A stretch of 39,082 nucleotides of DNA from Candidatus Beckwithbacteria bacterium (GCA_043826085.1 JBDRQW010000110.1:1-39082); one strand, 5' to 3'. Counted from the first letter of the stretch, positions 6,916-25,328 are shown. Numbers and translations: made by a program. The notes: generated by a model from the sequence alone, not told the origin.

Positions 6916-7194
6916 ATGGCTTTTGACAAGTTATTAAGTATAGTATTGGTGATAGTTTTATCTTTGTTTTATAGTACTTTAGGTTTGTTTAATTTTTTGT
7001 GGTTGGCGGTAATTTGGTTGGCTATTAAGAAATGGTGGTTGTTAATATTTATTTCCGGCTTGATTTTTGATCTAGTTGTGGGATCGACTTTGGGACTATC
7101 CAGTTTTAAATTTTTAGTGGTGGCAGGTTTAATTTATTTAATTAAAGAGTATTGGCCGGTTAGATCCCAACGTCAGTTAAAATTAAAAATATAG
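6916..7194 (+). CDS. mreD: MreD-like small polytopic membrane protein
   Basis: 92 aa with three hydrophobic helices. The call rests on its position between mreC and PBP2. Confidence 0.5.
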   Translation: MAFDKLLSIVLVIVLSLFYSTLGLFNFLWLAVIWLAIKKWWLLIFISGLIFDLVVGSTLGLSSFKFLVVAGLIYLIKEYWPVRSQRQLKLKI

Positions 7195-7195
7195 T

Positions 7196-8692
7196 ATGAA
7201 AAAGATAAGTTATTATTATTTGGTTTTGTTAGTAACTTTTTTAGTTTTAACGGCGAGATTGGTAATGTTACAAGTATTTGAAGGTGAGTACTATAGAAAA
7301 CTAGCGGTTGAGAATCGGGTTAGTTTGGAAGTAATTAAAGCTAATCGGGGGGTGATGTACGATCGATTTGGGGAAGTTTTGGTAAGGAATTCTCCCGGAG
7401 GTCGAGAGTATGTTTTTGGTGAGACTTTAAGTCATGTCTTGGGTTATGTGGGTGAGGTTAATGAAGAGGAAATTGAAATTTCAGGTTATGAATTAAAAGA
7501 TGTAGTGGGTAAAATGGGTTTGGAGAAACAGTATGATTTAGAATTGCGGGGAGTCAATGGAGGAGTCTTGATTGAGAAAAATGCCGATGGCCAAAAGATT
7601 CGAGAGATTGGCAGAAAAGAACCAATGGATGGAGAGAGTTTAACTTTAAGTATTGATTTTGGTTTGCAAAAAAAGGCCTATGAGTTGATGGATAGTCGGA
7701 AGGGAGCGGTGATCGCCAGTGTGCCGGAAACCGGAGAAATATTGGCTTTGGTGAGTAGTCCGGGATTTAATTTTGAAAAAATAGAAGAGGCTTTGAGTAA
7801 TAAAGACCTACCTTTGTTTAATAGAGCAATTGGAGGCGAGTATCCTCCCGGATCGGTTTTTAAGATTGTAGTAGCTACTGCCGGGCTTGAAGAAAATAAG
7901 ATAGATGCTGAGACTGAAATTGAAGATACCGGGGAAATCAGAGTGGGTCTGTTTCGGTTTGGAAACTGGTACTTTGATCAGTATGGTAAAAAAGAGGGAA
8001 TGATTGGTTTGGTTCGAGCCATTGCCAGGAGTAATGATGTCTTTTTTTATAAATTGGGAGAGGCTTTGGGAATTGAGAAGTTAGCTGACTGGGCCAAGTA
8101 TTTTGGTTTAGGCAGGGTAACTAAAATTGATTTACCCGGTGAAGCTAATGGTTTGATACCCACTCCGGAGTGGAAACAGGAGTTTATTGGTGAGAGCTGG
8201 TATTTGGGGGATACTTATATTTCAAGTATTGGCCAGGGAAATGTTTTGATGACCCCGCTTCAGGTAAATCAAATGACTAGTGTGATTGCTTCAGGTGGCA
8301 AGTTGTGCCAGCCGTATTTAAGGGCGAAGCCCTTACAGGGCCTCGCCCTTCCAAGATGTCAGAAGTTGGATATTAGTGAGGAAAGCCTGGATTTGGTGAC
8401 TGAAGGAATGAAGCAAGTAGCTGAGAGTGGGGGGACAGCTTGGCCGTTTTTTGATTTTAAGGTAAAGGGGGAGCGGGTTTTTGTGGCAGCCAAAACCGGA
8501 ACAGCTGAGTTTGGGGAGGTGGGGGCAAGTGATATTAAAGAAGGCAAAACCCATGCTTGGTTTACTGCATTTGCGCCAATTGAAAAACCAAACATTGTGG
8601 TGACGGTGTTAATGGAGGCAGGGGGTGAGGGGTCTGATCAGGCAGCTCCGGTGGCTAGAGATTTATTAAGTTATTGGTTTTCAAGACAATAA
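7196..8692 (+). CDS. mrdA: Penicillin-binding protein 2 (elongasome transpeptidase)
   Basis: N-terminal TM helix, SxxK (GSVFKIV), SSIGQG and KTGTAE motifs. GLIPTPEWKQEF resembles the conserved PBP2 segment. Confidence 0.9.
   Translation: MKKISYYYLVLLVTFLVLTARLVMLQVFEGEYYRKLAVENRVSLEVIKANRGVMYDRFGEVLVRNSPGGREYVFGETLSHVLGYVGEVNEEEIEISGYELKDVVGKMGLEKQYDLELRGVNGGVLIEKNADGQKIREIGRKEPMDGESLTLSIDFGLQKKAYELMDSRKGAVIASVPETGEILALVSSPGFNFEKIEEALSNKDLPLFNRAIGGEYPPGSVFKIVVATAGLEENKIDAETEIEDTGEIRVGLFRFGNWYFDQYGKKEGMIGLVRAIARSNDVFFYKLGEALGIEKLADWAKYFGLGRVTKIDLPGEANGLIPTPEWKQEFIGESWYLGDTYISSIGQGNVLMTPLQVNQMTSVIASGGKLCQPYLRAKPLQGLALPRCQKLDISEESLDLVTEGMKQVAESGGTAWPFFDFKVKGERVFVAAKTGTAEFGEVGASDIKEGKTHAWFTAFAPIEKPNIVVTVLMEAGGEGSDQAAPVARDLLSYWFSRQ
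8160..8173. repeat. 14-bp palindrome CCACTCCGGAGTGG (core of family F) inside mrdA
   Basis: Identical to the core of the 22-bp intergenic palindrome of the TA array. Here it encodes the conserved PTPEW. Confidence 0.6.
8320..8350. repeat. Family A hairpin AAGGGCGAAGCCC-TTACA-GGGCCTCGCCCTT inside mrdA
   Basis: Reverse complement of the 2005-2035 element with one substitution, translated as RAKPLQGLALP. This is a different frame from the fmt copy. Confidence 0.85.
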
Positions 8693-8711
8693 AAATAAAG
8701 TAAAATAGTAG

Positions 8712-8750
8712 TATATAAATTAAATCACGATCGTGTTGTCGATTATATAT
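8712..8750. repeat. Family E palindromic element (intergenic)
   Basis: TATATAAATTAAATCACGATCGTGTTGTCGATTATATAT lies immediately upstream of, and overlaps, the ATG at 8749. Confidence 0.7.
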
Positions 8751-9531
8751 GAAACAAAGAGAAGTAGTTAAGGAGATATCAGCTGGATTAATAGTAACCG
8801 GGGTTGATTTTGTTTTGTTTACGGCGTCTTTGGGTTTAAATTTGTATACAGCCAGCTTTAAGCCAAAAAATCCAATTGAGGTATTGATTGATAGTTTTAA
8901 ACTAACCGGTTATTTTCAAAATAAATTATTAAAATCCAGTTGTGCTTATGCGAAACAAAAAGGCTATCTAAAAAAAGTTAAACAAGAGTTAAAAATAACT
9001 AAATCGGGCTTAAAGAGACTTGACAGTTTGTTACCAGTTTATCAAAAAAAGCGAAAGTGGAACGGGAGATTAAACCTAATTACTTATGATATTTCTGAAA
9101 AACATAGACATAAAAGAGAAATATTGGCTAAATGGCTAAAGAGCCAAAATGCGATTATGTTGCAAAAAAGTGTTTGGGTATCGGTTTTTGACTTATCTAA
9201 AAATTTAAATAAATATAAGAATCAATTTTTATTAAAAGACCAAGGAGTAATTTTAACCTCTGAGTTAAAAAAGGGAGAAGGGGTTAACGAAAGAACTATT
9301 AGTGAATTAATTGAAGATTGGTATCAATTATCTGCATTAAATTTAAGGTATGATAATTTTATTTCTTGGGTGAAAATGGAAAAAAGATTTGGAATACAAG
9401 ATAAAATGATTTTACAAATGAGATATTTATCGATTTTAAAAGATGATCCTCAATTGCCGTTTGGTATTTTGCCAAAAAATTGGAAAGGAGATCAAGCTTA
9501 TAAATTATATAAGAATAAACTTGACGTATAA
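8749..9531 (+). CDS. PaaX-family-like protein (Cas2-like fold plus PaaX_C-like tail)
   Basis: WNGRLNLITYDISEKHRHKREILAKWLKSQNAIMLQKSVWVS and the C-terminal DDPQLPFGILPKNWKGDQAYKLY resemble the PaaX C-terminal region. The ORF is flanked by family E palindromes. Confidence 0.5.
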   Translation: MKQREVVKEISAGLIVTGVDFVLFTASLGLNLYTASFKPKNPIEVLIDSFKLTGYFQNKLLKSSCAYAKQKGYLKKVKQELKITKSGLKRLDSLLPVYQKKRKWNGRLNLITYDISEKHRHKREILAKWLKSQNAIMLQKSVWVSVFDLSKNLNKYKNQFLLKDQGVILTSELKKGEGVNERTISELIEDWYQLSALNLRYDNFISWVKMEKRFGIQDKMILQMRYLSILKDDPQLPFGILPKNWKGDQAYKLYKNKLDV

Positions 9532-13286: not shown

Positions 13287-15469
13287 ATTGGCAGATAAAA
13301 AAACGCTCGGGAGAGTTTCAGGTATATAATAAAGAAAAAGTAATTCGGTCTATATATAGAGCTCAGGAAAATATTGATAAACAAGATTGGGACCAGGCCA
13401 GAGTGATTGGAAAGCTGGTATTTGATGAGCTGGAAGATAAATTTAAGAAAGAAAAAATCTTGGGTTCAGATGAAGTTGGGGATGTTTTGGAAAGAATTTT
13501 AATTGATAACAAACTTTATGATATTGCTCGAGCTTATATTATTGCCAGAGAAAAGCAAAGAGAGGAAGCTAAAGCAGAAAAGGGTTTGGGTGTAGTGGAC
13601 GATGTTGGCTTGCCTTACACCTCGATAGTGGTTTTAAAGAATAAGTATTTAAAAAAAGATGAAAATGAAAAGGTAATCGAGACACCTAAGGGTTTGTTCA
13701 AAAGGGTAGCTAAAGCTATTGCTAAAGCAGAGAAAACTACCAAAAATAAAAAAGTTTGGGAGAGAAAGTTTTATCAGTCAATGAAGAACTTAGAGTTTTT
13801 ACCGGGAGGAAGAACTTTGGCCAATGCGGGGACGACCAATAATCAACTGGCTAATTGTTTTGTAATGCCGATGCCGGATAGTGTGGAGGGAATTTTTGAG
13901 AGCGTTAAAGAGTCCTCAATATTAAAGAAAAATGGCGGTGGAGTGGGTTTTAGTTTTTCTCATATTCGCCCCAAGGGTGATGAGGTGGCAACCACCAGCG
14001 GTAAAGCGGCCGGGCCGGTAGCTTTTATGAAGATTGTTAACGATGCTAGTGAAATATTGGTCCAAGCCGGAGGTAGAAGAAGTGGCAACATGGTGGTTCT
14101 TCATGTGACTCATCCTGATATTTTTGAGTTTATTACCAGCAAAGAAGATGAAAATCACTTGAATCAAATTAATTTTTCTTTGGGGTTAACTGATAAGTTT
14201 ATGAATGCGGTTAAGAAAGATAAACCGTTTGATTTAATTAATCCTCGAAGTGGTCAAGTAGTTAACACGGTTTCGGCCAGATCAATTTTTGAGTTGTGTG
14301 CTTCTTATGCTTGGAAAAATGGTGATCCGGGGATTATATTTTTGGATAGGATAAATAAAGATAATCCAACTCCCCATGTTGGAGTTTTGGAGGCGGTTAA
14401 TTTGTGTGGAGAGCAACCTTTACTTAATTATGAGGCTTGTAATTTGGGGAGTATTAATCTAGGTAAACACATTAAAAAGAATATAAAAGGAGTAAGGGTA
14501 GTGGATTGGGATAAGCTAGAAAAAACAATTAAGGTGGGGGTGAGAATGCTTGATAATGCGATTGATGTGGGCAAGTATCCGTTAAAAAAAGTAACTAAAA
14601 TAGTTAAGTCAAATAGAAAGATTGGATTGGGCATAATGGGATTTGCGGATTTATTGGTTAGGTTAAATATTGCTTACAATAGCCCGGAAGGATTGAAGTT
14701 AGCCTCTAAGATAATGAAGTTTATTCAAGATATTTCTCATGATACTTCAAAGAAATTGGGTAAGGAAAAGGGAAGTTTTCCAAACTTTGAAGGGAGTCTT
14801 TGGGATAAAAAGGGTTACAAGTATATGCGTAATGCCACTTTGACTACCATAGCTCCGACCGGTTCGATTAGTATGGTGGCTAATGCCAGTTATGGAGTAG
14901 AACCTCATTTTGCTTTGGCTTTTTATAAAGAAGCTTTGGGGGGGATTAGGTTGCCGGAAATTAACGCTGATTTACTGGAAGCTTTGAGAAAAAGTAAGCT
15001 GGATTTGGGAGGAGGTTTGGTAGATAAAATTGCCTGTCAAGGGGTGTTGAAGAATATTAAAGAAGTGCCGGAAGATATTAAAAAAGTTTTTGTGACGGCT
15101 CATGACATTGAGGCAAAAGATCATATTGCTATGCAGTCAGCCTTTCAAAAATATACTGATAATGCGGTTAGTAAAACTATTAACTTGCCAAATCATTCCA
15201 GAGTTGAGGATGTGGTTAAAGTATTTATGTCAGCCTGGGAAGCGGGCTGTAAAGGGATTACCATATATAGAGATTCAAGTAGAAGTGTGCAAGTTTTAAA
15301 TGTGGGCTATGGTAAAAGTGAAAATCCAAAAGTTAAAATTTTAAAACTAAAAGTAAAGTCTAAAGATCAAAAAAAATCTGATAAGTGCCCCCAGTGTGGT
15401 CAAACAATGTTAAAAACCGAGGGGTGTAGTACTTGTCCTTCGTGTGCTTTTAGTTTGTGTAGTGTGTAA
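13277..15469 (+). CDS. nrdJ: Class II (adenosylcobalamin-dependent) ribonucleotide reductase with N-terminal ATP-cone and C-terminal zinc ribbon
   Basis: ATP-cone start (IKKRSGEFQVYNKEKV), NCFV, NLCGEQPL and TIAPTGSIS motifs, and a C-terminal CPQCG...CSTCPSC. I chose the ATG at 13277, which overlaps the topA stop by 10 nt. Confidence 0.9.
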   Translation: MQINWQIKKRSGEFQVYNKEKVIRSIYRAQENIDKQDWDQARVIGKLVFDELEDKFKKEKILGSDEVGDVLERILIDNKLYDIARAYIIAREKQREEAKAEKGLGVVDDVGLPYTSIVVLKNKYLKKDENEKVIETPKGLFKRVAKAIAKAEKTTKNKKVWERKFYQSMKNLEFLPGGRTLANAGTTNNQLANCFVMPMPDSVEGIFESVKESSILKKNGGGVGFSFSHIRPKGDEVATTSGKAAGPVAFMKIVNDASEILVQAGGRRSGNMVVLHVTHPDIFEFITSKEDENHLNQINFSLGLTDKFMNAVKKDKPFDLINPRSGQVVNTVSARSIFELCASYAWKNGDPGIIFLDRINKDNPTPHVGVLEAVNLCGEQPLLNYEACNLGSINLGKHIKKNIKGVRVVDWDKLEKTIKVGVRMLDNAIDVGKYPLKKVTKIVKSNRKIGLGIMGFADLLVRLNIAYNSPEGLKLASKIMKFIQDISHDTSKKLGKEKGSFPNFEGSLWDKKGYKYMRNATLTTIAPTGSISMVANASYGVEPHFALAFYKEALGGIRLPEINADLLEALRKSKLDLGGGLVDKIACQGVLKNIKEVPEDIKKVFVTAHDIEAKDHIAMQSAFQKYTDNAVSKTINLPNHSRVEDVVKVFMSAWEAGCKGITIYRDSSRSVQVLNVGYGKSENPKVKILKLKVKSKDQKKSDKCPQCGQTMLKTEGCSTCPSCAFSLCSV

Positions 15470-15473
15470 GTGG

Positions 15474-16130
15474 TTAGGTGTGATCGATTAAGGTTTTATT
15501 TGAGAGAATATCACTATTTATGCTTTTAATACCATCTAAAGTAAATTGCCAGAAAGAATCGGTTGATTTAAAGTGAGATTTAATATCTTTAGTTTGGCAA
15601 AAGCCTTGTCTTTTATTTAAGTATTCTGGTAGGCTGCTCCAGAGATAATTTTTTAGTTGAGTAGCATTGAGTGGATTGTATTTAAGGTTAGCCGGATTGG
15701 TGTGGATATAACGAGTAAGGTGAATTAATTGTTCTTGAATATCTATGTTAACTTTTTTATATTTTGATTCAAAGAGTCGCCCGCTTCTTGTATATTTTTT
15801 GTTAAAAAAAGTTGTGTAGCTGTTGCCTAATCGTTGAGCAAATTTGGATAATTCTTCTTTTGAATTTGATTTAACTATTATGTGGTAGTGATTACTCATT
15901 AAACAATATGCGTGTATCTCAGCAATGTAGGGGCCATATAGTTTTTCAAGTTGGGTAGATCCTAATGCTTCAAACTGTTCATTTCTTGTTTTTCTTTCCA
16001 TGTCAGAAATTTTTGGGGAGTTTAATAGAAGAGAATTATGAATGGCGAGGAGAAATCTTTGCTTATCGTTAATATCTTGAAATATATTTCGCTTGTCAAC
16101 TCCGCGATTGTAAATGTGATAAAAAGCCAT
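15474..16130 (-). CDS. IS200/IS605-type Y1 (HUH) transposase-like protein, RAYT-like
   Basis: YHIYNRGVDKRNIF, HUH-type motif YCLMSNHYHIIV, TGRLFESKYK-like SGRLFESKYKK, and the tyrosine helix LTRYIHTNP. Confidence 0.7.
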   Translation of the reverse strand: MAFYHIYNRGVDKRNIFQDINDKQRFLLAIHNSLLLNSPKISDMERKTRNEQFEALGSTQLEKLYGPYIAEIHAYCLMSNHYHIIVKSNSKEELSKFAQRLGNSYTTFFNKKYTRSGRLFESKYKKVNIDIQEQLIHLTRYIHTNPANLKYNPLNATQLKNYLWSSLPEYLNKRQGFCQTKDIKSHFKSTDSFWQFTLDGIKSINSDILSNKTLIDHT

Positions 16131-16207: not shown

Positions 16208-16777
16208 ATGATACTTTCTGATAAAGATATTAAAAAGGCATTAAAGGACGGTTTAATTAAAATTAAGCCAAAGTCAGATTTAAAAACACAACTAGGGTCG
16301 TGTAGTATTGATTTGCGTTTAGGAAAAAAGTTTAGGATTTTTAATCATAGTAAGTTTCCCTATATTGATCCTCGAAAAAAAGATTTAGCGTCAGATATTA
16401 CCGAAGAAGTGGTGGCATCAAGTAAGTATCCGTTTATTTTACAACCGGGAGATTTTGCCTTGGCGACTACGATGGAGTGGTTTAGTTTGCCAAATAACTT
16501 GTTGGCTCGATTAGAGGGTCGGTCGAGTCTGGGTAGATTAGGAATTGTGGTTCACTCTACGGCCAGCATTTTTGAACCAGGTTGGCGTGGAGTGGTGGTG
16601 ATGGAGCTTGGTAATTTAGGCAGAATGCCGGTAGCCCTTTATCCCGGGATGAGAGTCTGCGCTTTAACTTTTGAACAATTAACCAGTGAAGTTGATATGC
16701 CTTATCATAAAAAAAAGAGTGCTAAATATATAGACCAAAAAGAGCCGGAAGAGAGTAAAATTGGATTGGATGAATGA
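16208..16777 (+). CDS. dcd: dCTP deaminase
   Basis: MILSDKDIKKAL, CSIDLRLG, ARLEGRSSLGRLGIVVH and EPGWRGVVVMELGN are dCTP deaminase motifs. Confidence 0.9.
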   Translation: MILSDKDIKKALKDGLIKIKPKSDLKTQLGSCSIDLRLGKKFRIFNHSKFPYIDPRKKDLASDITEEVVASSKYPFILQPGDFALATTMEWFSLPNNLLARLEGRSSLGRLGIVVHSTASIFEPGWRGVVVMELGNLGRMPVALYPGMRVCALTFEQLTSEVDMPYHKKKSAKYIDQKEPEESKIGLDE

Positions 16778-18030
16778 AAAACAATCATACAAAAAAAGAG
16801 ATTGCCATTTCAGTTTTAAAAGCTATTTTTTCGGCAAGTGATGTGAAAAAATTTGAAAAAATAAGGGGGGTAATACTGTGTGGTTTGCCCGGGTGTGGCA
16901 AAAGCACGATTGCGGAGTTGCTTCATGATGCTTATGGTTTTGAAATTTTATCAACCGATCAAGTGAGAACAGAAGATTTATTTAAAGGTCAAAATCATCG
17001 AATGGCAAGTGAGCACATGAAAGTAATGTTAACTCGTTATGCTGTTTATGCCAAGTTGGGAGTGATGGTAAATAAGAAATTAAATGATAAAAAGAAAGTG
17101 GTGGTAGATGGGACTCATTTAGATGATAAACGTTTTAGTAATATAGGTGGAATGTTAGCTAAGATACCGAGCAACAAGATGGCAATTATTGTGGTTCGGA
17201 CACCAGAATGGATTATTAAAAAAAGATTCATGGATTGGGATAAAGAGAAATATGATGAATGGTGGAGTGTGTATAAATTTTGGATAGATTATATAAAGGC
17301 AGGGAAAGCTCAATTTCCAACGAAGAAGGAATTATCTAATCTACAAATTATTAAGCCTAAGTGTTATGCAATTAGAACCTTTGATTGGGTGACGGATATT
17401 AAAGCAATTGGCTGGGATTTGGATGGAACCCTTTATCATCCTAATTTAATTCCCAAGAAGATGTTTACAAGAAGACAGATAAAGGCGGTAATGGAAAAGA
17501 ATTGTTGGAGTAAATCAAAGGCAATAAAAGAATATGATCGGGCTTATGAGAAAATTGGTAGTCATACCAAAACTTTATTATCTTTGGGGGTTGACGGAGT
17601 TAGTTTATTTTTAAGAATTTGGGATGAGTTGCCATTGGATAAATATTTAAAAAAAGATAAAAAACTACAGAAAATGTTTAGAGCCTTGGGCAAGGTTAGA
17701 CACTTTATTTTGTCGAATGGAGGAACTGAAAAACAGATAAAAAGAAAGTTGAAGTTATTGGGCCTGAATTTGAATAAATTTGAAATAATTAGTTCTGGTT
17801 ATGATTTAGGATTGGTTAAACCTGATAAAAAAGTGTTTAAAGTCATGGCCGAGAAGATGAAGCTAGAGCCTGAAGAAATTTTGTATGTGGGCGATAGAGA
17901 AAAAGCAGATGTGATAGGTGCTAATAAAATTGGCATGAAAACTTGTTTGGTTTATGGAAAATCAAAAGAGGCCGATGTTTGTCTTAAAAATGTTTATGAA
18001 GTAGCGGGCTTGTTTGGTAAAGAAGTATGA
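16774..18030 (+). CDS. Fusion of a P-loop kinase (AAA_33/polynucleotide-kinase-like) and a HAD-superfamily phosphatase
   Basis: N-terminal domain: Walker A GLPGCGKST, STDQVR and VVVDGTHLDDKR. C-terminal domain: DxDGT (WDLDGTLY), SNG and GDREKADVIGANKIGM. There is an ATGA overlap with dcd. Confidence 0.6.
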   Translation: MKNNHTKKEIAISVLKAIFSASDVKKFEKIRGVILCGLPGCGKSTIAELLHDAYGFEILSTDQVRTEDLFKGQNHRMASEHMKVMLTRYAVYAKLGVMVNKKLNDKKKVVVDGTHLDDKRFSNIGGMLAKIPSNKMAIIVVRTPEWIIKKRFMDWDKEKYDEWWSVYKFWIDYIKAGKAQFPTKKELSNLQIIKPKCYAIRTFDWVTDIKAIGWDLDGTLYHPNLIPKKMFTRRQIKAVMEKNCWSKSKAIKEYDRAYEKIGSHTKTLLSLGVDGVSLFLRIWDELPLDKYLKKDKKLQKMFRALGKVRHFILSNGGTEKQIKRKLKLLGLNLNKFEIISSGYDLGLVKPDKKVFKVMAEKMKLEPEEILYVGDREKADVIGANKIGMKTCLVYGKSKEADVCLKNVYEVAGLFGKEV

Positions 18031-18308: not shown

Positions 18309-19412
18309 ATGAAAATATATTTAGGTGGAGCAGTTACTTTAGGGAAAAAATCACAACCTCGATTAAAGAGAATCGAGAAAGAGTTAGTTAAGCTAGGGCA
18401 TAAGGTGGTTGGCGGAGCTTTAAAAAAAGAGGTTAAGTCAGAGAGTAGGGAGTCAGCCAGAAAACTATATGAAAGAGAGTTAAAGTTAATTGCCAAGTGT
18501 GATCTGATGATAGCTGAGGTAAGTCAGCCATCTTGGGGAACAGCTTTTTTGATTGAAGATGCGCTTGAGCATAGCAAACTAGTGCTGTCTTTGTTTTACA
18601 AAAACAACGGACATGATTTACCCTTAATGATTAAGGGGCACTCGGAGCTTTATAGTGAGCATTATGACGAGGATAATTTACATGCAATTTTAATAAAGAA
18701 TCTTACTCATTTCAAACAGATGAAGCGAAGGCGGGGTAAGTTGGTGGTGATAGATGGGGCTGATGGGTCGGGGAAGGCAACTCAGACTAAAAAGTTATTA
18801 AAGTATTTAAAAAAACAAAAGATTAAAAATAGGTATATTACTTTTCCAAGGTATTACACTTCGTTTCATGGCAAGCATGTGGGTAGATTTTTGACCGGAG
18901 AATTTGGAGGCAATAATGAGGTTAGTCCGTACATGTCCAGTTTAGCTTTTGCTTTGGATCGATTAACTGCCAGAGATGAAATTGTGGAGTGGTTGGAAGA
19001 AGGAAATGTAGTAGTGGCTGATCGGTATGTGTCAGCTTCGCTGGCTCATCAAGGCTCTAAGATGCCACCAAGAAAAAGGAAGGCATTTTTAGATTGGCTT
19101 TATGACATGGAGTATAAAGTGCATAAGTTGCCCAAGGAAGATATTGTAATTTATTTATATGTACCCGTAGATACCGCCCAAGCTTTGATTGGTAAAAAAG
19201 GTAAGCGGGGATATACTAAAGGGAAAGATGAGGCCGAAAAAGATCTGAAGCATCAAGCTAAGTCAATCGAGATGTATAAGGAACTTTGTAAACGATTCAG
19301 GCATTGGCAGATGATTAAGTGTGTGGATAGTAAGGGTGATTTATTGAGTATTAATCAGGTTCATGAACTAATTTTAAAAACATTAAAGGATAAAAAGATA
19401 ATTGGTGGTTGA
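18309..19412 (+). CDS. tmk: Fusion of a nucleoside 2-deoxyribosyltransferase/Rcl(DNPH1)-like domain and thymidylate kinase
   Basis: N-terminal part: MKIYLGGAV...CDLMIAEVSQPSWGTAFLIEDALEHSKLVLSLF (NDT-like fold with a Glu). C-terminal part: VIDGADGSGKATQ, ADRYVSAS and a LID-like region. Confidence 0.75.
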   Translation: MKIYLGGAVTLGKKSQPRLKRIEKELVKLGHKVVGGALKKEVKSESRESARKLYERELKLIAKCDLMIAEVSQPSWGTAFLIEDALEHSKLVLSLFYKNNGHDLPLMIKGHSELYSEHYDEDNLHAILIKNLTHFKQMKRRRGKLVVIDGADGSGKATQTKKLLKYLKKQKIKNRYITFPRYYTSFHGKHVGRFLTGEFGGNNEVSPYMSSLAFALDRLTARDEIVEWLEEGNVVVADRYVSASLAHQGSKMPPRKRKAFLDWLYDMEYKVHKLPKEDIVIYLYVPVDTAQALIGKKGKRGYTKGKDEAEKDLKHQAKSIEMYKELCKRFRHWQMIKCVDSKGDLLSINQVHELILKTLKDKKIIGG

Positions 19413-19438
19413 CATATTTTAAGAACAAGTTGTATAGT
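19409..19438 (+). promoter_or_regulatory. Sigma-70-like promoter TTGACA-18 nt-TATAGT
   Basis: TTGACA at 19409-19414 overlaps the tmk stop codon; TATAGT is at 19433-19438, preceded by TG. Confidence 0.5.
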
Positions 19439-19444
19439 TAAGTC

Positions 19445-19469
19445 CCAGAGCCACAAGCTCTGGTTTTTT
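19445..19469 (+). terminator. Hairpin CCAGAGC-CACAA-GCTCTGG followed by T6
   Basis: 7-bp stem at 19445-19451/19457-19463 and a T-tract at 19464-19469. It could be the intrinsic terminator of the tmk unit or the first leader hairpin. Confidence 0.6.
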
Positions 19470-19478
19470 AGAGGAAAA

Positions 19479-19523
19479 ATGGAAAAAATAGTAAAACGTT
19501 ATCAAATAATACAAAAAAAATAA
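19479..19523 (+). CDS. Candidate 14-codon leader peptide MEKIVKRYQIIQKK
   Basis: GAGGA lies 5 nt upstream of the ATG, and the stop codon is 4 nt before the second terminator stem. Confidence 0.3.
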   Translation: MEKIVKRYQIIQKK

Positions 19524-19527
19524 AGTT

Positions 19528-19551
19528 ATCCCGCGTCAGCGGGATTTTTTT
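19528..19551 (+). terminator. Attenuator-type hairpin ATCCCGC-GTCA-GCGGGAT followed by a T-tract
   Basis: 7-bp stem at 19528-19534/19539-19545 and a T-run at 19546-19551, followed directly by the AGGAG RBS and the ATG at 19564. Confidence 0.6.
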
Positions 19552-19563
19552 AAGGAGTTTTTT

Positions 19564-21051
19564 ATGAAAAAAGTAACAATGAGGATTGGCAAAAAGAAAG
19601 TGTTAGTAGATTATACTGTGCATTTTGGCAATTTAGCTTTAATGAATGAAAGTTTAAATTGGGGAGCGAGTAATAATTATCGAAAGCTAAATTTAGTTTA
19701 TGTGGATGTTCCGGAGATGGTGGGAATTACCGGAGCTTGTGAAAATGTAGATACTTTGTTTAAAGTGGTTAATCGTTTTGATATTCCCCTGTTTTTTACT
19801 CAAACCGGGCAGTTATCTTTAGAACAGGCCTTACAATCTTTCCATGGAGTATATACGGTGATTCACTCCGGCAGAGATGAAGAGATAGAAGATGAAAGAC
19901 ATTTAAGACAGTTTAGATTAACTGAGGAAGAGTTTGATTGTACTATGGTTGGAATGACGCGTGGAAAATATAATGAGGAGAAAATGTTTGAGGGATTACT
20001 TATTCATATTGAAAAAGCAATTAAGGGAATGATCGGGGGAGTGATTAAAGATAATCTGGAGGTAATGAAAAAAGTTTATCAACGAGATGTGAGTAAATTA
20101 AAACAAGTTTTAAAAAGCAATTTTTTTAGGATTAGTTATGAAGAGACGATTGAGTTATTAAATATTAATGGATTTAAAAAGTTAAAGTTTGGGGATGATT
20201 TAAAAGCCAATCATGAACAAAAGGTGGTAGAGTTGTTAAACAAAAAAGGTGGAGAAATTCCGGTATTTATTACCAAGTATCCAAAAGAAATTAAGTTTTT
20301 TAACATGAAGGTTTCAAAGAAGGATCCGAGAGTGGTTTTGTCAGCTGACTTAATTTTGCCTTATAGTGGAGAGTCAGTAGGCTCAGCCGTAAGAGAACAT
20401 GATTTTAATTTATTGAATCAAAGACTTTTAATCTCTGAAATGTATCGATTACATCTTGAGAGGGGTGGTAAATATAAAGATTTTGATTGGTACTTAAAGA
20501 TTATGAAACAGAAAAAAACTAGTCCTCATGCCGGCTATGGAATTGGGAATGAAAGAGTGTTGCAGTTTATTTTTGGCGAGTCAGATATTCGCAACGTGTC
20601 ATTAATGTCTTTATTAAATCGACAGTCAAAAGATTGGGATGTTAAACATTATGGCACAGCGGCTTTAATCAGTGAAGATAAAAAGCAGATTTTATTAACT
20701 ATTGGCAAGCTTAAAAATAAAAAAATCTTATTGCCGTTTATTAAAAAATTAGCCGGCAAGTCAAACTATACTTTGTATTCAACAGAAAATACTAGTAAGT
20801 TTTTGTCTGAAAATAACGTGAAGACTAGAATGGTCTATAAAATATCTCAAATTGGTCAACAGCCGAATATTAGCAACTTAATGGATAGAAGAGTCTTTGA
20901 CATTGTGATTAATATTCCAAGAGATTCAAAGATAAATGGTAGTTTAACAGATGGCAAGATGATTAGAAGATCGGCGGCTGAGGCGGGAGTATCTTTGATT
21001 ACTGATATTGAAATGGCTAAAATGGTAATGGATAATTTATGCCGAAACTAA
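19564..21051 (+). CDS. AsnRS/AspRS-type class II aaRS catalytic core lacking the anticodon-binding domain (AsnA-like), fused to a C-terminal MGS-like domain
   Basis: Class II motifs appear in order: YVDVPEMV; FFTQTGQLSLEQ; HSGRDEEIEDERHLRQFRLTEEEF; PVFITKYPKEIKFFNMK; SPHAGYGIGNERVLQF. The C-terminal region KKQILLTIGKLKNKKILLPFIKKL...VFDIVINIP...MIRRSAAEAGVSLITDIEMAK is MGS-like. Confidence 0.7.
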   Translation: MKKVTMRIGKKKVLVDYTVHFGNLALMNESLNWGASNNYRKLNLVYVDVPEMVGITGACENVDTLFKVVNRFDIPLFFTQTGQLSLEQALQSFHGVYTVIHSGRDEEIEDERHLRQFRLTEEEFDCTMVGMTRGKYNEEKMFEGLLIHIEKAIKGMIGGVIKDNLEVMKKVYQRDVSKLKQVLKSNFFRISYEETIELLNINGFKKLKFGDDLKANHEQKVVELLNKKGGEIPVFITKYPKEIKFFNMKVSKKDPRVVLSADLILPYSGESVGSAVREHDFNLLNQRLLISEMYRLHLERGGKYKDFDWYLKIMKQKKTSPHAGYGIGNERVLQFIFGESDIRNVSLMSLLNRQSKDWDVKHYGTAALISEDKKQILLTIGKLKNKKILLPFIKKLAGKSNYTLYSTENTSKFLSENNVKTRMVYKISQIGQQPNISNLMDRRVFDIVINIPRDSKINGSLTDGKMIRRSAAEAGVSLITDIEMAKMVMDNLCRN

Positions 21052-21959
21052 AAACTAATTTTTTAGGAATAGACTTTGAAAATCCTTTGATAATACCGTC
21101 GGGGATTTTACAGGAAGTTAATCAACATGAACTAGCTGAGAAATATGGTTTGGGAGGGGTTACAACTAAGTCAATGACGGTTGAGCCCAGGGAAGGCAAT
21201 CCGATTCCCAGAGTAATTAAATATGAATGCGGGATTTTAAATTCGGTTGGTTTGAGAAATCCGGGCATTAAAAAAGGAGCAAGGCTTTGGGGAGAGTTTA
21301 TAAAAAAAACCAAAATTCCGGTAATTTGTAGTGTGTTTGCGGTTAAGATTAAAGAATTTGTTCTATTGGCTGAAGAGGTAAAGAAGATCAAACCAGAGAT
21401 AATCGAACTAAATTTGTCATGTCCAAATGCTGTTGATGAGTTAGGAGAGCCATTGGGAACGGGAGTGGAATCAACTTATAAAGTAGTCAAGGCGGTTAGG
21501 AAAGCGGTAGGTAAAGAGGTAAAGTTAATGGCTAAGTTGTCTCCTAATGTGAGTGATATTGGTGAGATAGCCAGAGCGGCTGAAAAGGCCGGGGTAGATG
21601 CGATTAGTGCCATTAATACGGTTGGGCCCGGAATGGTGATTAATATTGATACTAGAAAGCCGATGTTGGGAAACATTGTTGGCGGGGTGTCAGGTCCGGG
21701 AATCAGGCCAATAGCGGTTCGGTGTGTTTGGGATATATACAAGAAGGTTAAGTTACCGATTTTAGGCATGGGCGGTGTGTCAAACGGGAAAGACGTGATT
21801 GAGATGATGATGGCAGGGGCAAGTTTGGTGGGGATTGGTTCAGCTTGGTATGCTCAAGGTTTTGGGGTTTATGAAAAAATCAAAAAGGAGCTATTGGAGT
21901 ATATGCAAAAGAATAAAATTAAGTCACTAAAAAAATTAGTGGGAGTGGCTCATGGTTAA
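21039..21959 (+). CDS. pyrD: Dihydroorotate dehydrogenase, class 1 catalytic subunit
   Basis: FENPLIIPSG, active-site ELNLSCPN, GVSGPGIRPIA and GMGGV are class 1 motifs. It overlaps the upstream gene by 13 nt. Confidence 0.9.
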   Translation: MPKLKTNFLGIDFENPLIIPSGILQEVNQHELAEKYGLGGVTTKSMTVEPREGNPIPRVIKYECGILNSVGLRNPGIKKGARLWGEFIKKTKIPVICSVFAVKIKEFVLLAEEVKKIKPEIIELNLSCPNAVDELGEPLGTGVESTYKVVKAVRKAVGKEVKLMAKLSPNVSDIGEIARAAEKAGVDAISAINTVGPGMVINIDTRKPMLGNIVGGVSGPGIRPIAVRCVWDIYKKVKLPILGMGGVSNGKDVIEMMMAGASLVGIGSAWYAQGFGVYEKIKKELLEYMQKNKIKSLKKLVGVAHG

Positions 21960-22236
21960 AGAAATTTTGTCGGATAGTGCTACTTACATTGCTCCTTGTG
22001 AGCAAGAAAGTTTGGTTAATTTATTTTATAAAAGAGGTGGCTATAAAGGAAGGCAGTGCAGGGAATGCGAGGAAAGAAATCCAGTTTATAAAGTTTTAAG
22101 CTTATCACCAAAAGGTGAAGTTGAAGGTTCATTTGGACCTAATTATTATTGTAAAACTCATGTACCAAATATTCATCAAGTAGTAGCAAGTCAAGGTAAT
22201 TATTGTGATCAATTATTTGGATCATTAAAAAAATAA
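21952..22236 (+). CDS. Hypothetical small Cys-containing protein (possible zinc-ribbon, CRECE...YYCKTH)
   Basis: 94-aa ORF that overlaps the pyrD stop by 8 nt and sits where pyrK is found in class 1B operons. Confidence 0.4.
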   Translation: MVKEILSDSATYIAPCEQESLVNLFYKRGGYKGRQCRECEERNPVYKVLSLSPKGEVEGSFGPNYYCKTHVPNIHQVVASQGNYCDQLFGSLKK

Positions 22237-22255: not shown

Positions 22256-22885
22256 ATGAGTAAAGTAGTGGATATTTTAAAAAAAGTCGGGGCAGTGATT
22301 ACTAACGATCATTTTGTTTACACCTCAGGTAAGCATGGTGAAGCTTATATAAATAAAGATGCTCTTTATCCTCATACGGTAGAAACATCTGAGGTTTGTA
22401 AGTTAATGGCTGAGATGTATAAAGATGAAGAAATTGATGTGGTGGTTGGTCCAGCCTTGGGCGGGATTATATTATCTCAATGGGTGGCTTATCATTTATC
22501 TTTAATAAAAGGAAGGGAAGTATTGGGGGTTTATACCGTTAAAGATGAGGCAGGAAATCAAGTTTTTGATCGAAGAGGTTATGATAGGTTAGTAAAAGGC
22601 AAAAAAGTATTAGTGGTGGAGGATTTAACTACTACCGGGGGGTCAGTTAAAAAAACGGTGGATAGTGTGAAAGTTGCCGGTGGAGAAGTAATCGGGGTTT
22701 GTGTAATGGTTAATCGGGATCCTGAAAAGGTGACGAGTGAAGTGGTTGGGGCACCATTTAGGGCGGCAGGAGTGATTAGGGCTCAGGCATTTGATGAAAA
22801 AGATTGTCCGTTTTGTAAAGAAAATAGGCCGATTAATTTAGAGATTGGTCATGGAAAAGACTATTTGAGAAAGAGGGGTATATGA
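22256..22885 (+). CDS. pyrE: Orotate phosphoribosyltransferase
   Basis: PRPP-binding loop VLVVEDLTTTGGS in a type I PRTase fold, within the pyr operon. Confidence 0.85.
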   Translation: MSKVVDILKKVGAVITNDHFVYTSGKHGEAYINKDALYPHTVETSEVCKLMAEMYKDEEIDVVVGPALGGIILSQWVAYHLSLIKGREVLGVYTVKDEAGNQVFDRRGYDRLVKGKKVLVVEDLTTTGGSVKKTVDSVKVAGGEVIGVCVMVNRDPEKVTSEVVGAPFRAAGVIRAQAFDEKDCPFCKENRPINLEIGHGKDYLRKRGI

Positions 22886-23679
22886 GATTTATAAAAAAAT
22901 TAGAAAAAGTGGTAAAAGAAAAAAACTCGTTGGTGTGTGTGGGATTGGATAGTAACTTTGATAAGTTACCGGATCGCTTTAAACAATTAAAGTGCCCTCA
23001 GTTTGAGTTTAACAGGTGGATTATTGATCAAACAGTAGATTTTGTTTGTGCTTATAAGCCAAATTTTGCTTTTTATGAAGCTAGGGGCGAGCGGGGTTGG
23101 TTGGAGTTGAGAATGACTATGGAGTATTTAAGACATGACCACTCCGGAGTGGTAACGATAGCTGATGCTAAAAGAGGGGATATTGGTAATACCAATCAGG
23201 GGTATGTAAAAGCCATTTTTGACGATTTAGGATTTGATGCAGTGACAGTTAATCCGTATTTTGGACGGGAGGCTTTACAGCCGTTTTTAGAAAGAAAAGA
23301 TAAAGGGATAATTGTGCTTTGTCGAACCTCTAATCCCGGAGCGGGCGAGTTTCAAGATTTAAAAGTTGATGGCAAGCCGGTTTGGCAGATAGTAGCTGAG
23401 AAAGTTAGAGATGATTGGAATAAGCACGGCAATTGTATGCTAGTGGTCGGAGCTACATACCCTGAAGAGCTTTACAAGGTACGGAATCTTGTAAAAGAGA
23501 TGACTTTGTTGGTGCCGGGGATTGGAGCTCAGGGAGGAGATGTAGAGAAGACTATAAAAGCCGGGTTATGTTCTAATAAAATGGGTTTGATAATTAATTC
23601 TTCAAGGGGAATAATTTTTGATAAAAATCCTGGCTTGGCAACAATGAAACTAAGAGATAAAATAAATCAATATCGATAA
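22882..23679 (+). CDS. pyrF: Orotidine 5-prime-phosphate decarboxylase (type 2)
   Basis: LVCVGLD, YKPNFAFYE, ADAKRGDIGNT and LVPGIGAQGG are type 2 motifs. There is an ATGA overlap with pyrE. Confidence 0.9.
   Translation: MRFIKKLEKVVKEKNSLVCVGLDSNFDKLPDRFKQLKCPQFEFNRWIIDQTVDFVCAYKPNFAFYEARGERGWLELRMTMEYLRHDHSGVVTIADAKRGDIGNTNQGYVKAIFDDLGFDAVTVNPYFGREALQPFLERKDKGIIVLCRTSNPGAGEFQDLKVDGKPVWQIVAEKVRDDWNKHGNCMLVVGATYPEELYKVRNLVKEMTLLVPGIGAQGGDVEKTIKAGLCSNKMGLIINSSRGIIFDKNPGLATMKLRDKINQYR
23138..23153. repeat. 16-bp perfect palindrome ACCACTCCGGAGTGGT (family F core) inside pyrF
   Basis: An 18-nt run, ACCACTCCGGAGTGGTAA, is identical to the intergenic 22-mer ATTACCACTCCGGAGTGGTAAT. It is translated as DHSGVV. 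Confidence 0.7.
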
Positions 23680-23680: not shown

Positions 23681-24568
23681 ATGATGATTTTTTCAGGTTC
23701 TTCAAATATATTGTTGGCCAAGAGCTTAAGTAAGGTTAGCGGTTTTAAGTTGGGGAAGATAGAGCTGTCAAGGTTTGCAAATGACGAGTCCAGGGTGTGG
23801 GTGAGAGAAAAATTAGATAATAAACAAGCGATGGTCGTCCAGTCATTATCATCTCCGACTGATCATAATTTGGTGGAGTTTTGTTTGATTTGTGATGCTT
23901 TAATCAGAATGGGGGTTAAGGAAATTACGGCGGTGATTCCCTGGTTGGGTTATAGCAAGCAAGATAAAGTGTTTAGAGAGGGTGAGCCTTTAAGTGTAAA
24001 AGTAATAGCCAAGATGTTACAGACAGTTCCTTTAGAAAAAATTATTACTTTTGATTTGCATAACTTATCTATTTTGGGATTTTTTGAAGTGCCGGTAATT
24101 AATTTGTCAGCTAGGGGATTACTGGAAGATTATTTTTTAAAGACAATTACTAAAGATACAATTGTAGTGGCTCCGGATGCGGGAGCCATTAAGTCGTCGA
24201 CTGCTTTTGCTCACAAGTTGGGCATAGATGTAGTTTATGTGGATAAAAAAAGAGATTTAAAAACAGGCAAGGTGAAAATTTTTGGGATTAGTGGGCAAGT
24301 AAAAAATAAGCAAGCGATTATTATTGATGATATGATAGCTACCGGTGGTACTTTGATAAAAACGGCTGATTTTTTAAAGAAAAAAGGAGCTTGTTCAATT
24401 AAAGTGGGAGCGACTCATCATTTGTATGTTGGGGGGGTTCAGGAAAAGCTGGATAAAAGTGTGATTGATGAAGTAGTGGTGACGGATACGGTAGAACCGA
24501 GGCTAAAGTCGAGCAAGTTAAAAGTTTTGAGTGTTGCCGAAATGATAGTGAAGGAAATTGGTGGTTAA
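23681..24568 (+). CDS. prs: Ribose-phosphate pyrophosphokinase
   Basis: RFANDESRV, the GYSKQDK-like LGYSKQDKV, and the PRPP loop IIIDDMIATGGT. Confidence 0.9.
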   Translation: MMIFSGSSNILLAKSLSKVSGFKLGKIELSRFANDESRVWVREKLDNKQAMVVQSLSSPTDHNLVEFCLICDALIRMGVKEITAVIPWLGYSKQDKVFREGEPLSVKVIAKMLQTVPLEKIITFDLHNLSILGFFEVPVINLSARGLLEDYFLKTITKDTIVVAPDAGAIKSSTAFAHKLGIDVVYVDKKRDLKTGKVKIFGISGQVKNKQAIIIDDMIATGGTLIKTADFLKKKGACSIKVGATHHLYVGGVQEKLDKSVIDEVVVTDTVEPRLKSSKLKVLSVAEMIVKEIGG

Positions 24569-24570
24569 AT

Positions 24571-24593
24571 ATTCCAAGTTCCGATCTTGGAAT
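24571..24593. repeat. Family D REP-like palindrome ATTCCAAG-TTCCGAT-CTTGGAAT
   Basis: 8-bp arms with a 7-nt loop, located between the prs stop codon and the RAYT-like stop codon. Confidence 0.85.
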
Positions 24594-25217
24594 TTAGTCT
24601 ATAATTAATGATTTAATTTTTTCGATATTTGCTTCTGAAATAGGTGAGTTGAAGAATTGATAATAATTATCAACCTTTTCAGTAATATATTGGGGATAAA
24701 GCCAGTTTAGTGTCTTTGTTGCTTTTAAAAAGATAGAAAGAGAAGAGTGAGTGGTTTGGTGTTTGTGAATATATTTGGAAAGATAAATGAGTTGTTCTGA
24801 AGAATCTACAGTGACACATTTAAATTTTCCTTCGAATAGTGAACCGGTATGTTTGTACTTATTTCGAAAATGAATTGAGTAGGCAACGATTAAACGTCTT
24901 ATTAAGTTAGAGATATTAGTTTTTTCGGTGGCTGTTGGTAGTTGTTTTAGAAGTAGGTGATAATGGTTGGGCATTTGACAATAAGCCACTAAATGGACTG
25001 TAGGCTCTTTTTCCAAGTTCCGATCTTGGAATTTATTGACCTTTTTTTGGTAGGCAAAATGTCTGGTTCTTGGGAACTTTAGATAATAGGCGAGAATTTC
25101 AGTAAAAATATGATAGTCTTCTTTATCTTTATAAATCTTGTGCCTATAAGAGCCACGATTAAAAACATGATAGAAATGTTGAGGCTTAAAGTTTCGGGTG
25201 TAATATTTGCTGGGCAT
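24594..25217 (-). CDS. IS200/IS605-type Y1 (HUH) transposase-like protein, RAYT-like
   Basis: YHVFNRGSYRHKIY, YCQMPNHYHLLL, TGSLFEGKFK and LSKYIHKH. It is a paralog of the ORF at 15474-16130. Confidence 0.65.
   Translation of the reverse strand: MPSKYYTRNFKPQHFYHVFNRGSYRHKIYKDKEDYHIFTEILAYYLKFPRTRHFAYQKKVNKFQDRNLEKEPTVHLVAYCQMPNHYHLLLKQLPTATEKTNISNLIRRLIVAYSIHFRNKYKHTGSLFEGKFKCVTVDSSEQLIYLSKYIHKHQTTHSSLSIFLKATKTLNWLYPQYITEKVDNYYQFFNSPISEANIEKIKSLIID
25010..25032. repeat. Family D palindrome copy inside the RAYT-like ORF
   Basis: TTTCCAAGTTCCGATCTTGGAAT matches 22 of 23 positions and is translated in frame as FQDRNLE. Confidence 0.8.
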
Positions 25218-25250
25218 TGATTATTAATATATCATATTATAAATATAAAT

Positions 25251-25273
25251 ATTCCAAGATCGGAACTTGGAAT
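25251..25273. repeat. Family D palindrome, inverted orientation (ATTCCAAGATCGGAACTTGGAAT)
   Basis: Exact reverse complement of the 24571-24593 copy. Confidence 0.85.
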
Positions 25274-25274
25274 A

Positions 25275-25328
25275 TTGACAGTTTGCATTATTTTGTTATA
25301 GAATAATGTAAATATAAATTACATTATT
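25275..25328 (+). promoter_or_regulatory. Promoter TTGACA-16-TGtTATAGA plus 10-bp inverted repeat operator AATAATGTAA/TTACATTATT
   Basis: TTGACA at 25275-25280, TG plus TATAGA at 25294-25302, and the inverted repeat at 25302-25311/25319-25328, directly before the antitoxin ATG at 25330. Confidence 0.45.

Follow-up and report, generated by a model that had tools for sequence, protein, structure and literature searches.

An anticodon-domain-less AsnRS-type core fused to a CarB-like allosteric domain in pyrimidine operons of Patescibacteria, and a possible route to dihydroorotate without carbamoyl phosphate

A fusion gene in the pyrimidine operon of a Candidatus Beckwithbacteria bacterium (GCA_043826085.1 JBDRQW010000110.1:1-39082) was analysed within a DNA stretch of 39,082 nucleotides (nt), which is called the window in its full length. 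The encoded protein of 495 amino acids (aa) is a core of the asparaginyl-tRNA synthetase (AsnRS) type without anticodon domain, joined to an MGS domain like that of CarB, the large subunit of carbamoyl-phosphate synthetase (CPS). It is a metabolic paralogue of the aminoacyl-tRNA synthetases (aaRS), derived from AsnRS, which has lost the tRNA-reading domain and gained a domain of the CPS nucleotide-sensing type. The association of the MGS-bearing form with pyrimidine genes is not coincidental. We tentatively propose, with less than even confidence, that the protein is a tRNA-independent and ATP-dependent ring-closing ligase in a route from citrulline and aspartate via argininosuccinate to dihydroorotate and ornithine, which would proceed without carbamoyl phosphate.

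All class II motif strings that an earlier description, prepared from the DNA alone (the sequence-only reading), had listed are present in the protein: FFTQTGQL at residues 77-84, HSGRDEE...DERHLRQFRLTEEEF at residues 101-124, PVFITKYPKEIKFFNMK at residues 233-249 and SPHAGYGIGNERVLQF at residues 320-335. Their order was also given correctly, but FFTQTGQL had been taken for motif 1, while it corresponds to the substrate-binding 'QSPQL' segment of class IIb enzymes and motif 1 is located around Pro50 (VDVPEMVG). Motif 2 is formed by HSGRDEE..RHLRQF..EEE (R104/E106...F117) and motif 3 by GYGIGNER (R331). In the Pfam search, tRNA-synt_2 matched residues 45-347 (E 1.1e-30, 107 bits, cut-off 25) and MGS (PF02142) matched residues 389-480 (E 3.5e-12, 46.7 bits against a gathering threshold of 24.1). 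The OB-fold anticodon-binding domain (tRNA_anti-codon, PF01336), said earlier to be missing, was indeed not found in the protein by Pfam; about 45 residues precede motif 1. The domain was detected in a true AsnRS from the same search (P0372).

The best NCBIfam match was the catalytic half of asnS TIGR00457 (positions 147-446 of 455) with 169 bits against a cut-off of 342.6, and NF003037 gave 164 bits against 414. All four AsnA models (NF005052-55) scored 41-61 bits against cut-offs of 309-389. A profile built from 24 family members aligned with the P. horikoshii AsnRS (1X54) at E 3e-34 and about 29% identity, and with the isolated MGS domain of human CPS1 (2YVQ) at E 1.4e-11; with AS-AR (3p8t) it aligned over residues 254-348 only, about 95 residues at the end of the core (E 8.8e-7). 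The full-length AlphaFold model has a pLDDT of 74, with residues 45-122 modelled weakly (pLDDT <50), and Foldseek retrieved with it AsnRS and aspartyl-tRNA synthetase (AspRS) structures only, the top matches being all AsnRS. No TIM-barrel or metal-centre domain of an amidohydrolase was found in the protein by Pfam or Foldseek, and its fold is that of a class II aaRS. Judged by the anticodon domain, the curated score and the motif-2 loop described below, the protein is not an AsnRS. By sequence membership it is not an AsnA or AS-AR either, being much closer to true AsnRS. The sequence-only reading had compared its architecture with AsnA and the archaeal AsnRS-like asparagine synthetases, a comparison that holds for the core without anticodon domain but not for membership.

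The C-terminal region of about 125 aa, which had been described as MGS-like, is borne out as such by Pfam and by structure prediction. Residues 371-490 align in NCBIfam with CarB 936-1050, approximately the last 115 residues of CarB. When the C-terminal 130 aa were modelled alone, a pLDDT of 90.1 was obtained, and the best matches in the PDB were the allosteric domains of human CPS1 and E. coli CarB (TM 0.73-0.80, root mean square deviation 2.3-2.7 Å), with methylglyoxal synthases ranking after them. In the E. coli CarB structure with inosine monophosphate (IMP), residues K954, T974, T977, K993 and N1015 form the phosphate site for IMP and uridine monophosphate (UMP). Their equivalents are invariant or nearly so in 27 of 27 MGS modules, and in the 495-aa protein they are K386, T407, T410, K426 and N450. 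The C-terminal domain is probably a CarB-type allosteric module, with a nucleoside monophosphate such as UMP as the predicted ligand.

Copies of this module are found on the aaRS-like protein, ArgG and in some cases PyrD, and also in free form. These copies share 38-54% identity with each other (77-136 bits), 23-32% with E. coli CarB and 29-40% with a CarB of Patescibacteria. The presence of one module on several pathway enzymes speaks for a common nucleotide effector, or for an assembly of the pathway enzymes in a complex. In one locus the module is fused to the N-terminus of a 751-aa PyrD encoded directly after the aaRS-MGS gene (L110, 10476-12728), and the free form is a protein of 133 aa (L090, 14007-14408).

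More than 800 protein clusters with 60-73% identity share the aaRS+MGS architecture, and the two-domain fusion is therefore not a product of chance. The named ones belong to Microgenomates, Beckwithbacteria and other Patescibacteria. An alignment-based pattern scan of the GTDB collection (185,579 species, one genome per species) found the gene in at least 173 species, a scan by exact pattern being able to miss members. Genome loci were inspected over +/-10 kb around each match, 2.17 Mb of related loci in all (numbered L, with proteins numbered P). Two forms of the family could be distinguished, aaRS+MGS (about 495 aa) and aaRS only (about 340-390 aa). Across both forms 91 core positions are at least 95% invariant, and no substitution specific to the MGS or the MGS-less form was found in the core alignment, so both forms should catalyse the same reaction.

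The invariant residues of the family include R104/E106 of motif 2, the adenine-stacking F117, the Mg-binding D262/E270, the side-chain-binding R277, E60 of the flipping loop and R331 of motif 3. The AsnRS residues E121/E123 are also kept, and Leu86 occupies the position of the AspRS Lys. Compared to AsnRS, N61, D63, G103, D105, Q116, N247 (Tyr of 'FYM' in AsnRS) and A323 are invariants specific to the family. The motif-2 loop has a net charge of -4.7 in 75 family members versus +1.1 in nine true AsnRS. The signatures TGACEN, QTGQL, KFFNM and PHAGYGIG are also carried by a wider set of AsnRS-core proteins of the stand-alone kind (about 100 representative clusters), none of which reached the cut-off of any curated model. 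Some distant stand-alone members (P0245, P0255, P0371) have N-terminal extensions of 450-490 aa without Pfam match. The neighbourhoods of such distant relatives are mostly short contigs and uninformative; in one of them (L166, 8001-10542) the gene adjoins genes for an amidohydrolase of the dihydroorotase (DHOase)/allantoinase type, an ATP-grasp enzyme, an aminotransferase and a NUDIX protein.

Of the 41 loci with the MGS form, 22 have pyrD either fused to the gene or following it immediately in the same orientation, and two more have it as a neighbour on the opposite strand; pyrE, pyrF and sometimes pyrG are located downstream. Fusions of aaRS, MGS and PyrD in a single open reading frame (ORF) were found in five proteins (P0062, P0075, P0093, P0114 and P0243), of which P0075 was confirmed on its contig, and fusions that also include a phosphoribosyltransferase (PRTase) in P0241 (1134 aa) and L021 (1129 aa). 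The conserved order of aaRS-MGS and pyrD, together with these fusions, supports the link to pyrimidine synthesis that had been suspected from the window. The sequence-only reading had also noted the absence of pyrB, pyrC and carAB from the operon, and by tblastn with E. coli queries no CarA, CarB, PyrB, PyrI or PyrC could be found in the entire 39-kb window. In the approximately 110 related loci these genes are rare, full carAB/pyrB having been found only in L091 and L099, and a PyrC-type gene in L091 and L009. According to the earlier description, the link would be a coincidence if the C-terminal region had no MGS fold, if orthologues were scattered outside pyrimidine contexts and if the canonical genes were complete. 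The MGS fold holds and the MGS-bearing orthologues are mostly found in pyrimidine contexts, but the MGS-less form is scattered.

Related operons contain two further genes, one for an ArgG with a fused MGS domain (ArgG-MGS) and one for an amidohydrolase. They adjoin the aaRS-like gene or lie just upstream of it in L005, L012, L019, L020, L036, L046 and L081. With 507 bits (cut-off 334), ArgG-MGS is a true argininosuccinate synthase, and the MGS domain is located at its C-terminus. The amidohydrolase of 326 aa matches NCBIfam PRK06886, a 'hypothetical protein' model, with 465 bits. The order ArgG-MGS, amidohydrolase, aaRS-MGS(-PyrD), PyrF/PyrE was found in L081, L005, L012, L020, L083 and L084, and in the partner operons that were read (L005, L012, L081, L083 and L084) the intergenic gaps measure 1-10 nt. 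On the 447-kb contig of L081, the series ArgG-MGS, amidohydrolase, aaRS-MGS-PyrD, PyrF and PyrE follows after purB, purE, purC, an aminotransferase gene, a phosphoenolpyruvate (PEP) carboxylase gene, purM and a gene for a hypothetical protein. The pyrimidine module is located there within a nucleotide super-cluster (1-7266), in which the archaeal-type PEP carboxylase and the aminotransferase form a plausible aspartate supply; a cyclodipeptide synthase gene is situated shortly downstream (15396-16109).

A metagenome scan anchored on the amidohydrolase yielded 32 loci of the Patescibacteria type, with ArgG-MGS in 24, pyrD, pyrE or pyrF in 19 and a DDAH/arginine-dihydrolase-like gene in seven. 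The DDAH-like gene (NF045659, 226-249 bits, cut-off 300) was seen in L089-L093, L103, L107 (508-1296) and L046, often inserted within the cluster of ArgG-MGS and amidohydrolase genes, as is an EamA transporter gene in L090 and L091. The DDAH-like protein may supply citrulline from arginine or methylarginines.

Among solved structures, the amidohydrolase is most closely related to cytosine deaminase and AtzC (about 1e-30 each), the latter of which releases an alkylamine, isopropylamine, from the amidine carbon of a ring. The metal-ligand spacing of the amidohydrolase (HxH...H...H...D), as read from its invariant columns, is that of CodA, and an invariant Gln stands at the position of the catalytic Glu217 of CodA. 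In these columns no candidate for a carboxylated Lys was seen at the spacing of dihydroorotases. A role as plain cytosine deaminase in pyrimidine salvage is doubted because of the Gln at the Glu217 position, and one as dihydroorotase because of the CodA spacing, the lack of a carboxylated-Lys candidate and the lack of a match to a DHOase model. In some records the protein is labelled 'N-isopropylammelide isopropyl amidohydrolase' or 'cytosine deaminase'. Homologues with 64% identity are present in Pasteurellaceae, i.e. H. parainfluenzae, Mannheimia haemolytica, Actinobacillus pleuropneumoniae, Gallibacterium and Glaesserella (L115-L162, P0391-P0509), which suggests horizontal transfer. In the single Pasteurellaceae neighbourhood that was annotated (L146, gene at 7983-8975), the neighbours are yejK-like, yejM-like and gltX.

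With ArgG-MGS and this amidohydrolase as partners, a citrulline/argininosuccinate route is indicated, in which the aaRS-like enzyme is more likely a ring closer than an amidator of free aspartate. The sequence-only reading had considered an aspartate-activating amidoligase or a co-opted asparagine synthetase; it saw the connection with pyrimidines but missed both partners. We infer the substrates, the activated carboxylate, the order of steps and the MGS ligand of the following scheme, and with them its chemistry. ArgG-MGS would perform the native ArgG reaction and convert citrulline, aspartate and ATP to argininosuccinate. The aaRS-like enzyme would adenylate the beta-carboxylate of the aspartyl moiety, upon which the neighbouring guanidino nitrogen would close the six-membered ring by a C4-N3 bond. 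Adenylation of a carboxylate followed by attack of nitrogen is the chemistry of AsnA and the aaRS. The CodA/AtzC-like amidohydrolase (PRK06886) would then hydrolyse the bond between C2 and the ornithine nitrogen, giving dihydroorotate and ornithine, and PyrD, PyrE and PyrF would lead from dihydroorotate to UMP. Citrulline would in this way be the carbamoyl donor instead of carbamoyl phosphate, with three enzymes in place of CarAB, PyrB and PyrC, and the MGS modules would provide feedback by a nucleoside monophosphate at several steps or serve the assembly of a complex. The aaRS-like enzyme is proposed as the ring closer since the three tasks, i.e. formation of the bond between the aspartate nitrogen and the ureido carbon, formation of the amide between the beta-carboxyl group and nitrogen, and loss of ornithine at C2, match the chemistry of ArgG, of AsnA/aaRS-type enzymes and of AtzC/CodA-type enzymes, respectively.

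In an alternative order, hydrolysis would precede ring closure, the ureido nitrogen would attack and the substrate of the aaRS-like enzyme would be N-carbamoyl-aspartate. Gene order, the PyrD-PyrE fusion and the canonical PyrD in the window argue for this substrate. For argininosuccinate argue the acidic lid of the active site, the preference of the hydrolase family for ring amidines, the coexistence with PyrC-type genes in a few loci and the known anhydrides, one of which is a six-membered ring. Routine assays measure such dehydrated forms of argininosuccinate (PMC11016166). No published description of the fusion, of ArgG-MGS, of a function for PRK06886 or of a route from argininosuccinate to dihydroorotate was found in the literature, in agreement with the earlier remark that the fusion was not recognised as a described enzyme.

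A number of observations weigh against the proposed ring closure. The AsnRS-like pocket (Leu86, Glu121/Glu123, Arg277) would by homology point to an Asn-like substrate and to activation of the alpha- and not the beta-carboxylate. The aaRS-like gene is present in just six of the 32 amidohydrolase-anchored loci, and L086, L094, L098 and L107 have operons of ArgG-MGS, amidohydrolase, PyrD and PyrE/F without it; the PyrD in some operons of this kind is a divergent DHO_dh protein of 360-384 aa. Neither the ArgG-MGS nor the amidohydrolase gene was found in the 39-kb window, and the MGS-less form adjoins pyrD in one of 34 loci (L046), with unrelated neighbours in the others. ArgH is encoded beside ArgG-MGS in three loci (L091, L104 and L023), and in L042 its gene immediately follows the MGS-less one. 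Argininosuccinate would accordingly also feed arginine synthesis, which ArgG-MGS could simply serve. A canonical carB-carA-pyrB-pyrC set is located beside the module in L091, carAB follows the amidohydrolase gene in L099, and a PyrC-type gene lies directly upstream of aaRS-MGS in L009. In the Pasteurellaceae amidohydrolase loci no ArgG or pyr neighbours were found by tblastn. H. influenzae, the most thoroughly studied of the Pasteurellaceae and reported to be a pyrimidine auxotroph (PMC11024254), is not among the listed amidohydrolase carriers.

It is unlikely, in comparison, that the protein is an ammonia-dependent asparagine synthetase (Asp + NH3 + ATP -> Asn), similar to AsnA or AS-AR in function and in Microgenomates merely located or co-regulated in a nucleotide operon. 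Such an enzyme would have no reason to be fused with PyrD or PyrD-PRTase in a single polypeptide, or to have a CarB-type module in common with ArgG and PyrD, although a class II core without anticodon domain has its precedent in AS-AR and AsnA and the pocket is AsnRS-like. The MGS-less form is found with the same invariants in unrelated contexts, as would be the case for a housekeeping enzyme, and the acidic residues around its catalytic centre might provide a binding place for NH4+. The scores with the AsnA models are far below the cut-offs, however, the alignment with AS-AR is limited to the last residues of the core, and 173 of 185,579 GTDB species, in a scan that can miss members, is rare for a housekeeping function.

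Still somewhat less probable is an amidoligase at the pathway entry, close to the amidoligase of the sequence-only reading, that would make N-carbamoyl-aspartate or a related ureide, either by adenylation of N-carboxy-aspartate and reaction with NH3 or by acylation of a ureido nitrogen, with ring closure left to a separate amidohydrolase of the PRK06886 or PyrC type. An allosteric domain of the CarB type is expected on a first committed step, and the window operon begins with the fusion gene. The PyrC-type gene of L009 and the DHOase/allantoinase-type gene beside the distant member in L166 also fit. To our knowledge there is no precedent for adenylation of a carbamate by a class II fold, which counts against this explanation, as does the tight pairing of ArgG-MGS and amidohydrolase, which it leaves unexplained; the PRK06886 enzyme, with its CodA spacing and the Gln at the Glu217 position, is a poor candidate for a dihydroorotase.

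HisZ, a paralogue of HisRS, regulates ATP-phosphoribosyltransferase and offers a precedent for a non-catalytic subunit by which PyrD or PyrE would be controlled in response to an amino acid and a nucleotide. The location of the protein beside or in fusion with PyrD and PRTase, and its allosteric-type domain, would fit such a function. We consider it very improbable and reject a HisZ-like pseudoenzyme, since the 91 core positions with at least 95% invariance across both forms include every residue needed to bind ATP and form the adenylate, a pattern that suggests an active enzyme and not a degenerate sensor. A genuine AsnRS or AspRS that recognises tRNA without an anticodon domain of its own or with a partner in trans is hardly credible: its nearest relatives in sequence and structure are true AsnRS, but the OB domain is missing, the score is 169 bits versus 342.6, the loop of motif 2, by which the acceptor end is held, is strongly acidic and the fusion partners are metabolic enzymes.

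With AsnRS of the archaeal/eukaryal type (1X54) the protein has the class IIb fold and nearly the whole adenylate site in common. It differs by the absence of the OB domain and of the basic motif-2 loop, and by the CarB-type domain and metabolic fusion partners. AsnA and AS-AR (3P8T, 1NNH) are likewise tRNA-independent class II cores, and the proposed chemistry is alike, with adenylation of a beta-carboxylate and attack by nitrogen. By this analogy the protein plausibly works like AsnA; the nucleophile of AsnA is free ammonia, whereas here it would be intramolecular and the architecture has two domains. Cyclisation of aminoacyl adenylates by a nucleophile of the substrate itself is known from aaRS active sites, with homocysteine thiolactone formed by MetRS and ornithine lactam by LysRS. 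Those cyclisations are editing side reactions, while the one proposed here would be physiological. The allosteric domain of CPS (CarB, CPS1) has the same fold as the C-terminal domain, in which the phosphate-site residues are conserved; on CPS it belongs to the synthetase itself, and here it is carried by an aaRS core, ArgG and PyrD. The proposed role, formation of the C4-N3 bond, is that of PyrC, but the equivalence would be one of function: PyrC is a metal-dependent reversible amidohydrolase acting on a precursor derived from carbamoyl phosphate, in contrast to the proposed ATP-driven adenylation of argininosuccinate. Pathway enzymes are also fused in CAD and UMP synthase, as in aaRS-MGS-PyrD-PRTase. 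The nearest published concept is found in Thermococcales without CPS, where the carbamoyl group of pyrimidines comes from arginine/citrulline via ornithine transcarbamoylase, carbamoyl phosphate, PyrB and PyrC (PMC13260591). The operons of Patescibacteria have ArgG-MGS, the AtzC-like amidohydrolase and the aaRS-like enzyme instead; ornithine transcarbamoylase was not found in them in a search made only indirectly, via the PyrB query.

More generally, and with a little more reserve than for the ring-closing ligase itself, we consider it possible that in some Patescibacteria (Microgenomates and relatives) the pyrimidine ring is built independently of carbamoyl phosphate, aspartate transcarbamoylase (ATCase) and dihydroorotase, by means of ArgG-MGS, an AsnRS-derived ring closer and the AtzC/CodA-like hydrolase, with MGS feedback on ArgG, the aaRS-like enzyme and PyrD. 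If true, a first alternative would exist to CPS, ATCase and DHOase, the three initial steps of de novo pyrimidine synthesis that are otherwise treated as universal. The ring closer would also be a new catalytic use of the aaRS fold, joining the aaRS paralogues AsnA, HisZ and EpmA, and an example of modular regulation in which an allosteric domain has been copied over the enzymes of one pathway. Since KEGG-style modules rely on pyrB, pyrC and carAB, Patescibacteria are usually scored as incapable of nucleotide synthesis, and a bypass would alter such predictions. The presence of the amidohydrolase in culturable Pasteurellaceae offers a host for functional tests.

The features of the fusion gene, its operon and its leader are listed in Table 1. 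The overlap of 13 nt between the fusion gene and pyrD and the tight coupling of pyrE, pyrF and prs (overlap of 4 nt between pyrE and pyrF, gap of 1 nt between pyrF and prs) had been described correctly, but the 94-aa ORF between pyrD and pyrE had been missed. This ORF overlaps the end of pyrD by 8 nt and encodes a CxxC motif plus other Cys and His residues; it has no match in Pfam or NCBIfam. PyrD belongs to class 1B, yet no pyrK was found in the window; L107, L087 and L097 do contain this gene. The Cys-rich protein could be an electron-transfer or zinc-binding partner.

Table 1. Coordinates of the fusion gene, the operon genes and the leader elements in the window
Feature	Position	Strand	Remarks
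Promoter-like site TTGACA-18-TATAGT	19409..19438	+	11/12 consensus matches; consensus match alone
First terminator-like hairpin CCAGAGC-CACAA-GCTCTGG, then T-run	19445..19469	+	same position in L001, L003
14-codon mini-ORF (MEKIVKRYQIIQKK)	19479..19523	+	ends 4 nt before second hairpin
Second terminator-like hairpin ATCCCGC-GTCA-GCGGGAT + T7	19528..19552	+	directly before ribosome-binding site AAGGAG; candidate attenuator
aaRS-like/MGS fusion gene	19564..21051	+	495 aa, ATG start
AsnRS-type class II catalytic core	19696..20604	+	residues 45-347; Pfam, 1X54 profile alignment, Foldseek
CarB/CPS1-type allosteric (MGS-like) domain	20677..21048	+	residues 372-495; Pfam, NCBIfam, 2YVQ profile alignment, model, PDB matches
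pyrD, class 1 dihydroorotate dehydrogenase	21039..21959	+	Pfam DHO_dh 6e-70; PRK07259 324.5 bits vs 269
94-aa Cys-rich ORF	21952..22236	+	no family match; same position in L001, L002 (cluster c36)
pyrE, orotate phosphoribosyltransferase	22256..22885	+	TIGR01367 132 bits, just below cut-off 150
pyrF, orotidine monophosphate decarboxylase subfamily 2	22882..23679	+	TIGR02127 245 bits vs 110.6
prs, ribose-phosphate diphosphokinase	23681..24568	+	TIGR01251 294 bits vs 113

The leader at 19409-19563 looks like a transcription attenuator, in which the mini-ORF could have a putative role. In about 20 related loci a hairpin with a T-run precedes the start codon by 20-60 nt, also where the gene upstream is divergent (L007, L010, L022, L026-28 and L031). 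No Rfam family, e.g. a PyrR site, was found in the leader at the gathering threshold, the matches at E up to 5 being of chance level. In L082 a gene for a helix-turn-helix (HTH), transposase-like protein of 442 aa (7529-8857) is located between tmk and aaRS-MGS, and the aaRS-MGS protein encoded there is 100% identical (P0001). Since the HTH gene is present in L082 and not in the window, this intergenic region varies between closely related genomes.

Upstream of the leader, the window contains further nucleotide genes, i.e. a class II-type ribonucleotide reductase gene, dcd, a kinase-HAD fusion and an Ndt-like/thymidylate kinase fusion. The kinase-HAD fusion (16774-18030, 418 aa) combines a P-loop kinase (AAA_33) with a HAD phosphatase, and in the other (18309-19412, 367 aa) a nucleoside 2-deoxyribosyltransferase-like N-terminus is followed by thymidylate kinase. 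The block of nucleotide genes is bracketed by two IS200/Y1-type transposase-like genes at 15474-16130 and 24566-25276. A composite transposon formed by the two was considered and rejected, as the genes are just 33% identical. The second transposase gene is flanked by perfect palindromic inverted repeats of 26 nt (24568-24593 and 25251-25276), with a third copy at 25005-25032, and the palindromes together with the gene resemble a REP-associated tyrosine transposase with its REP hairpins.

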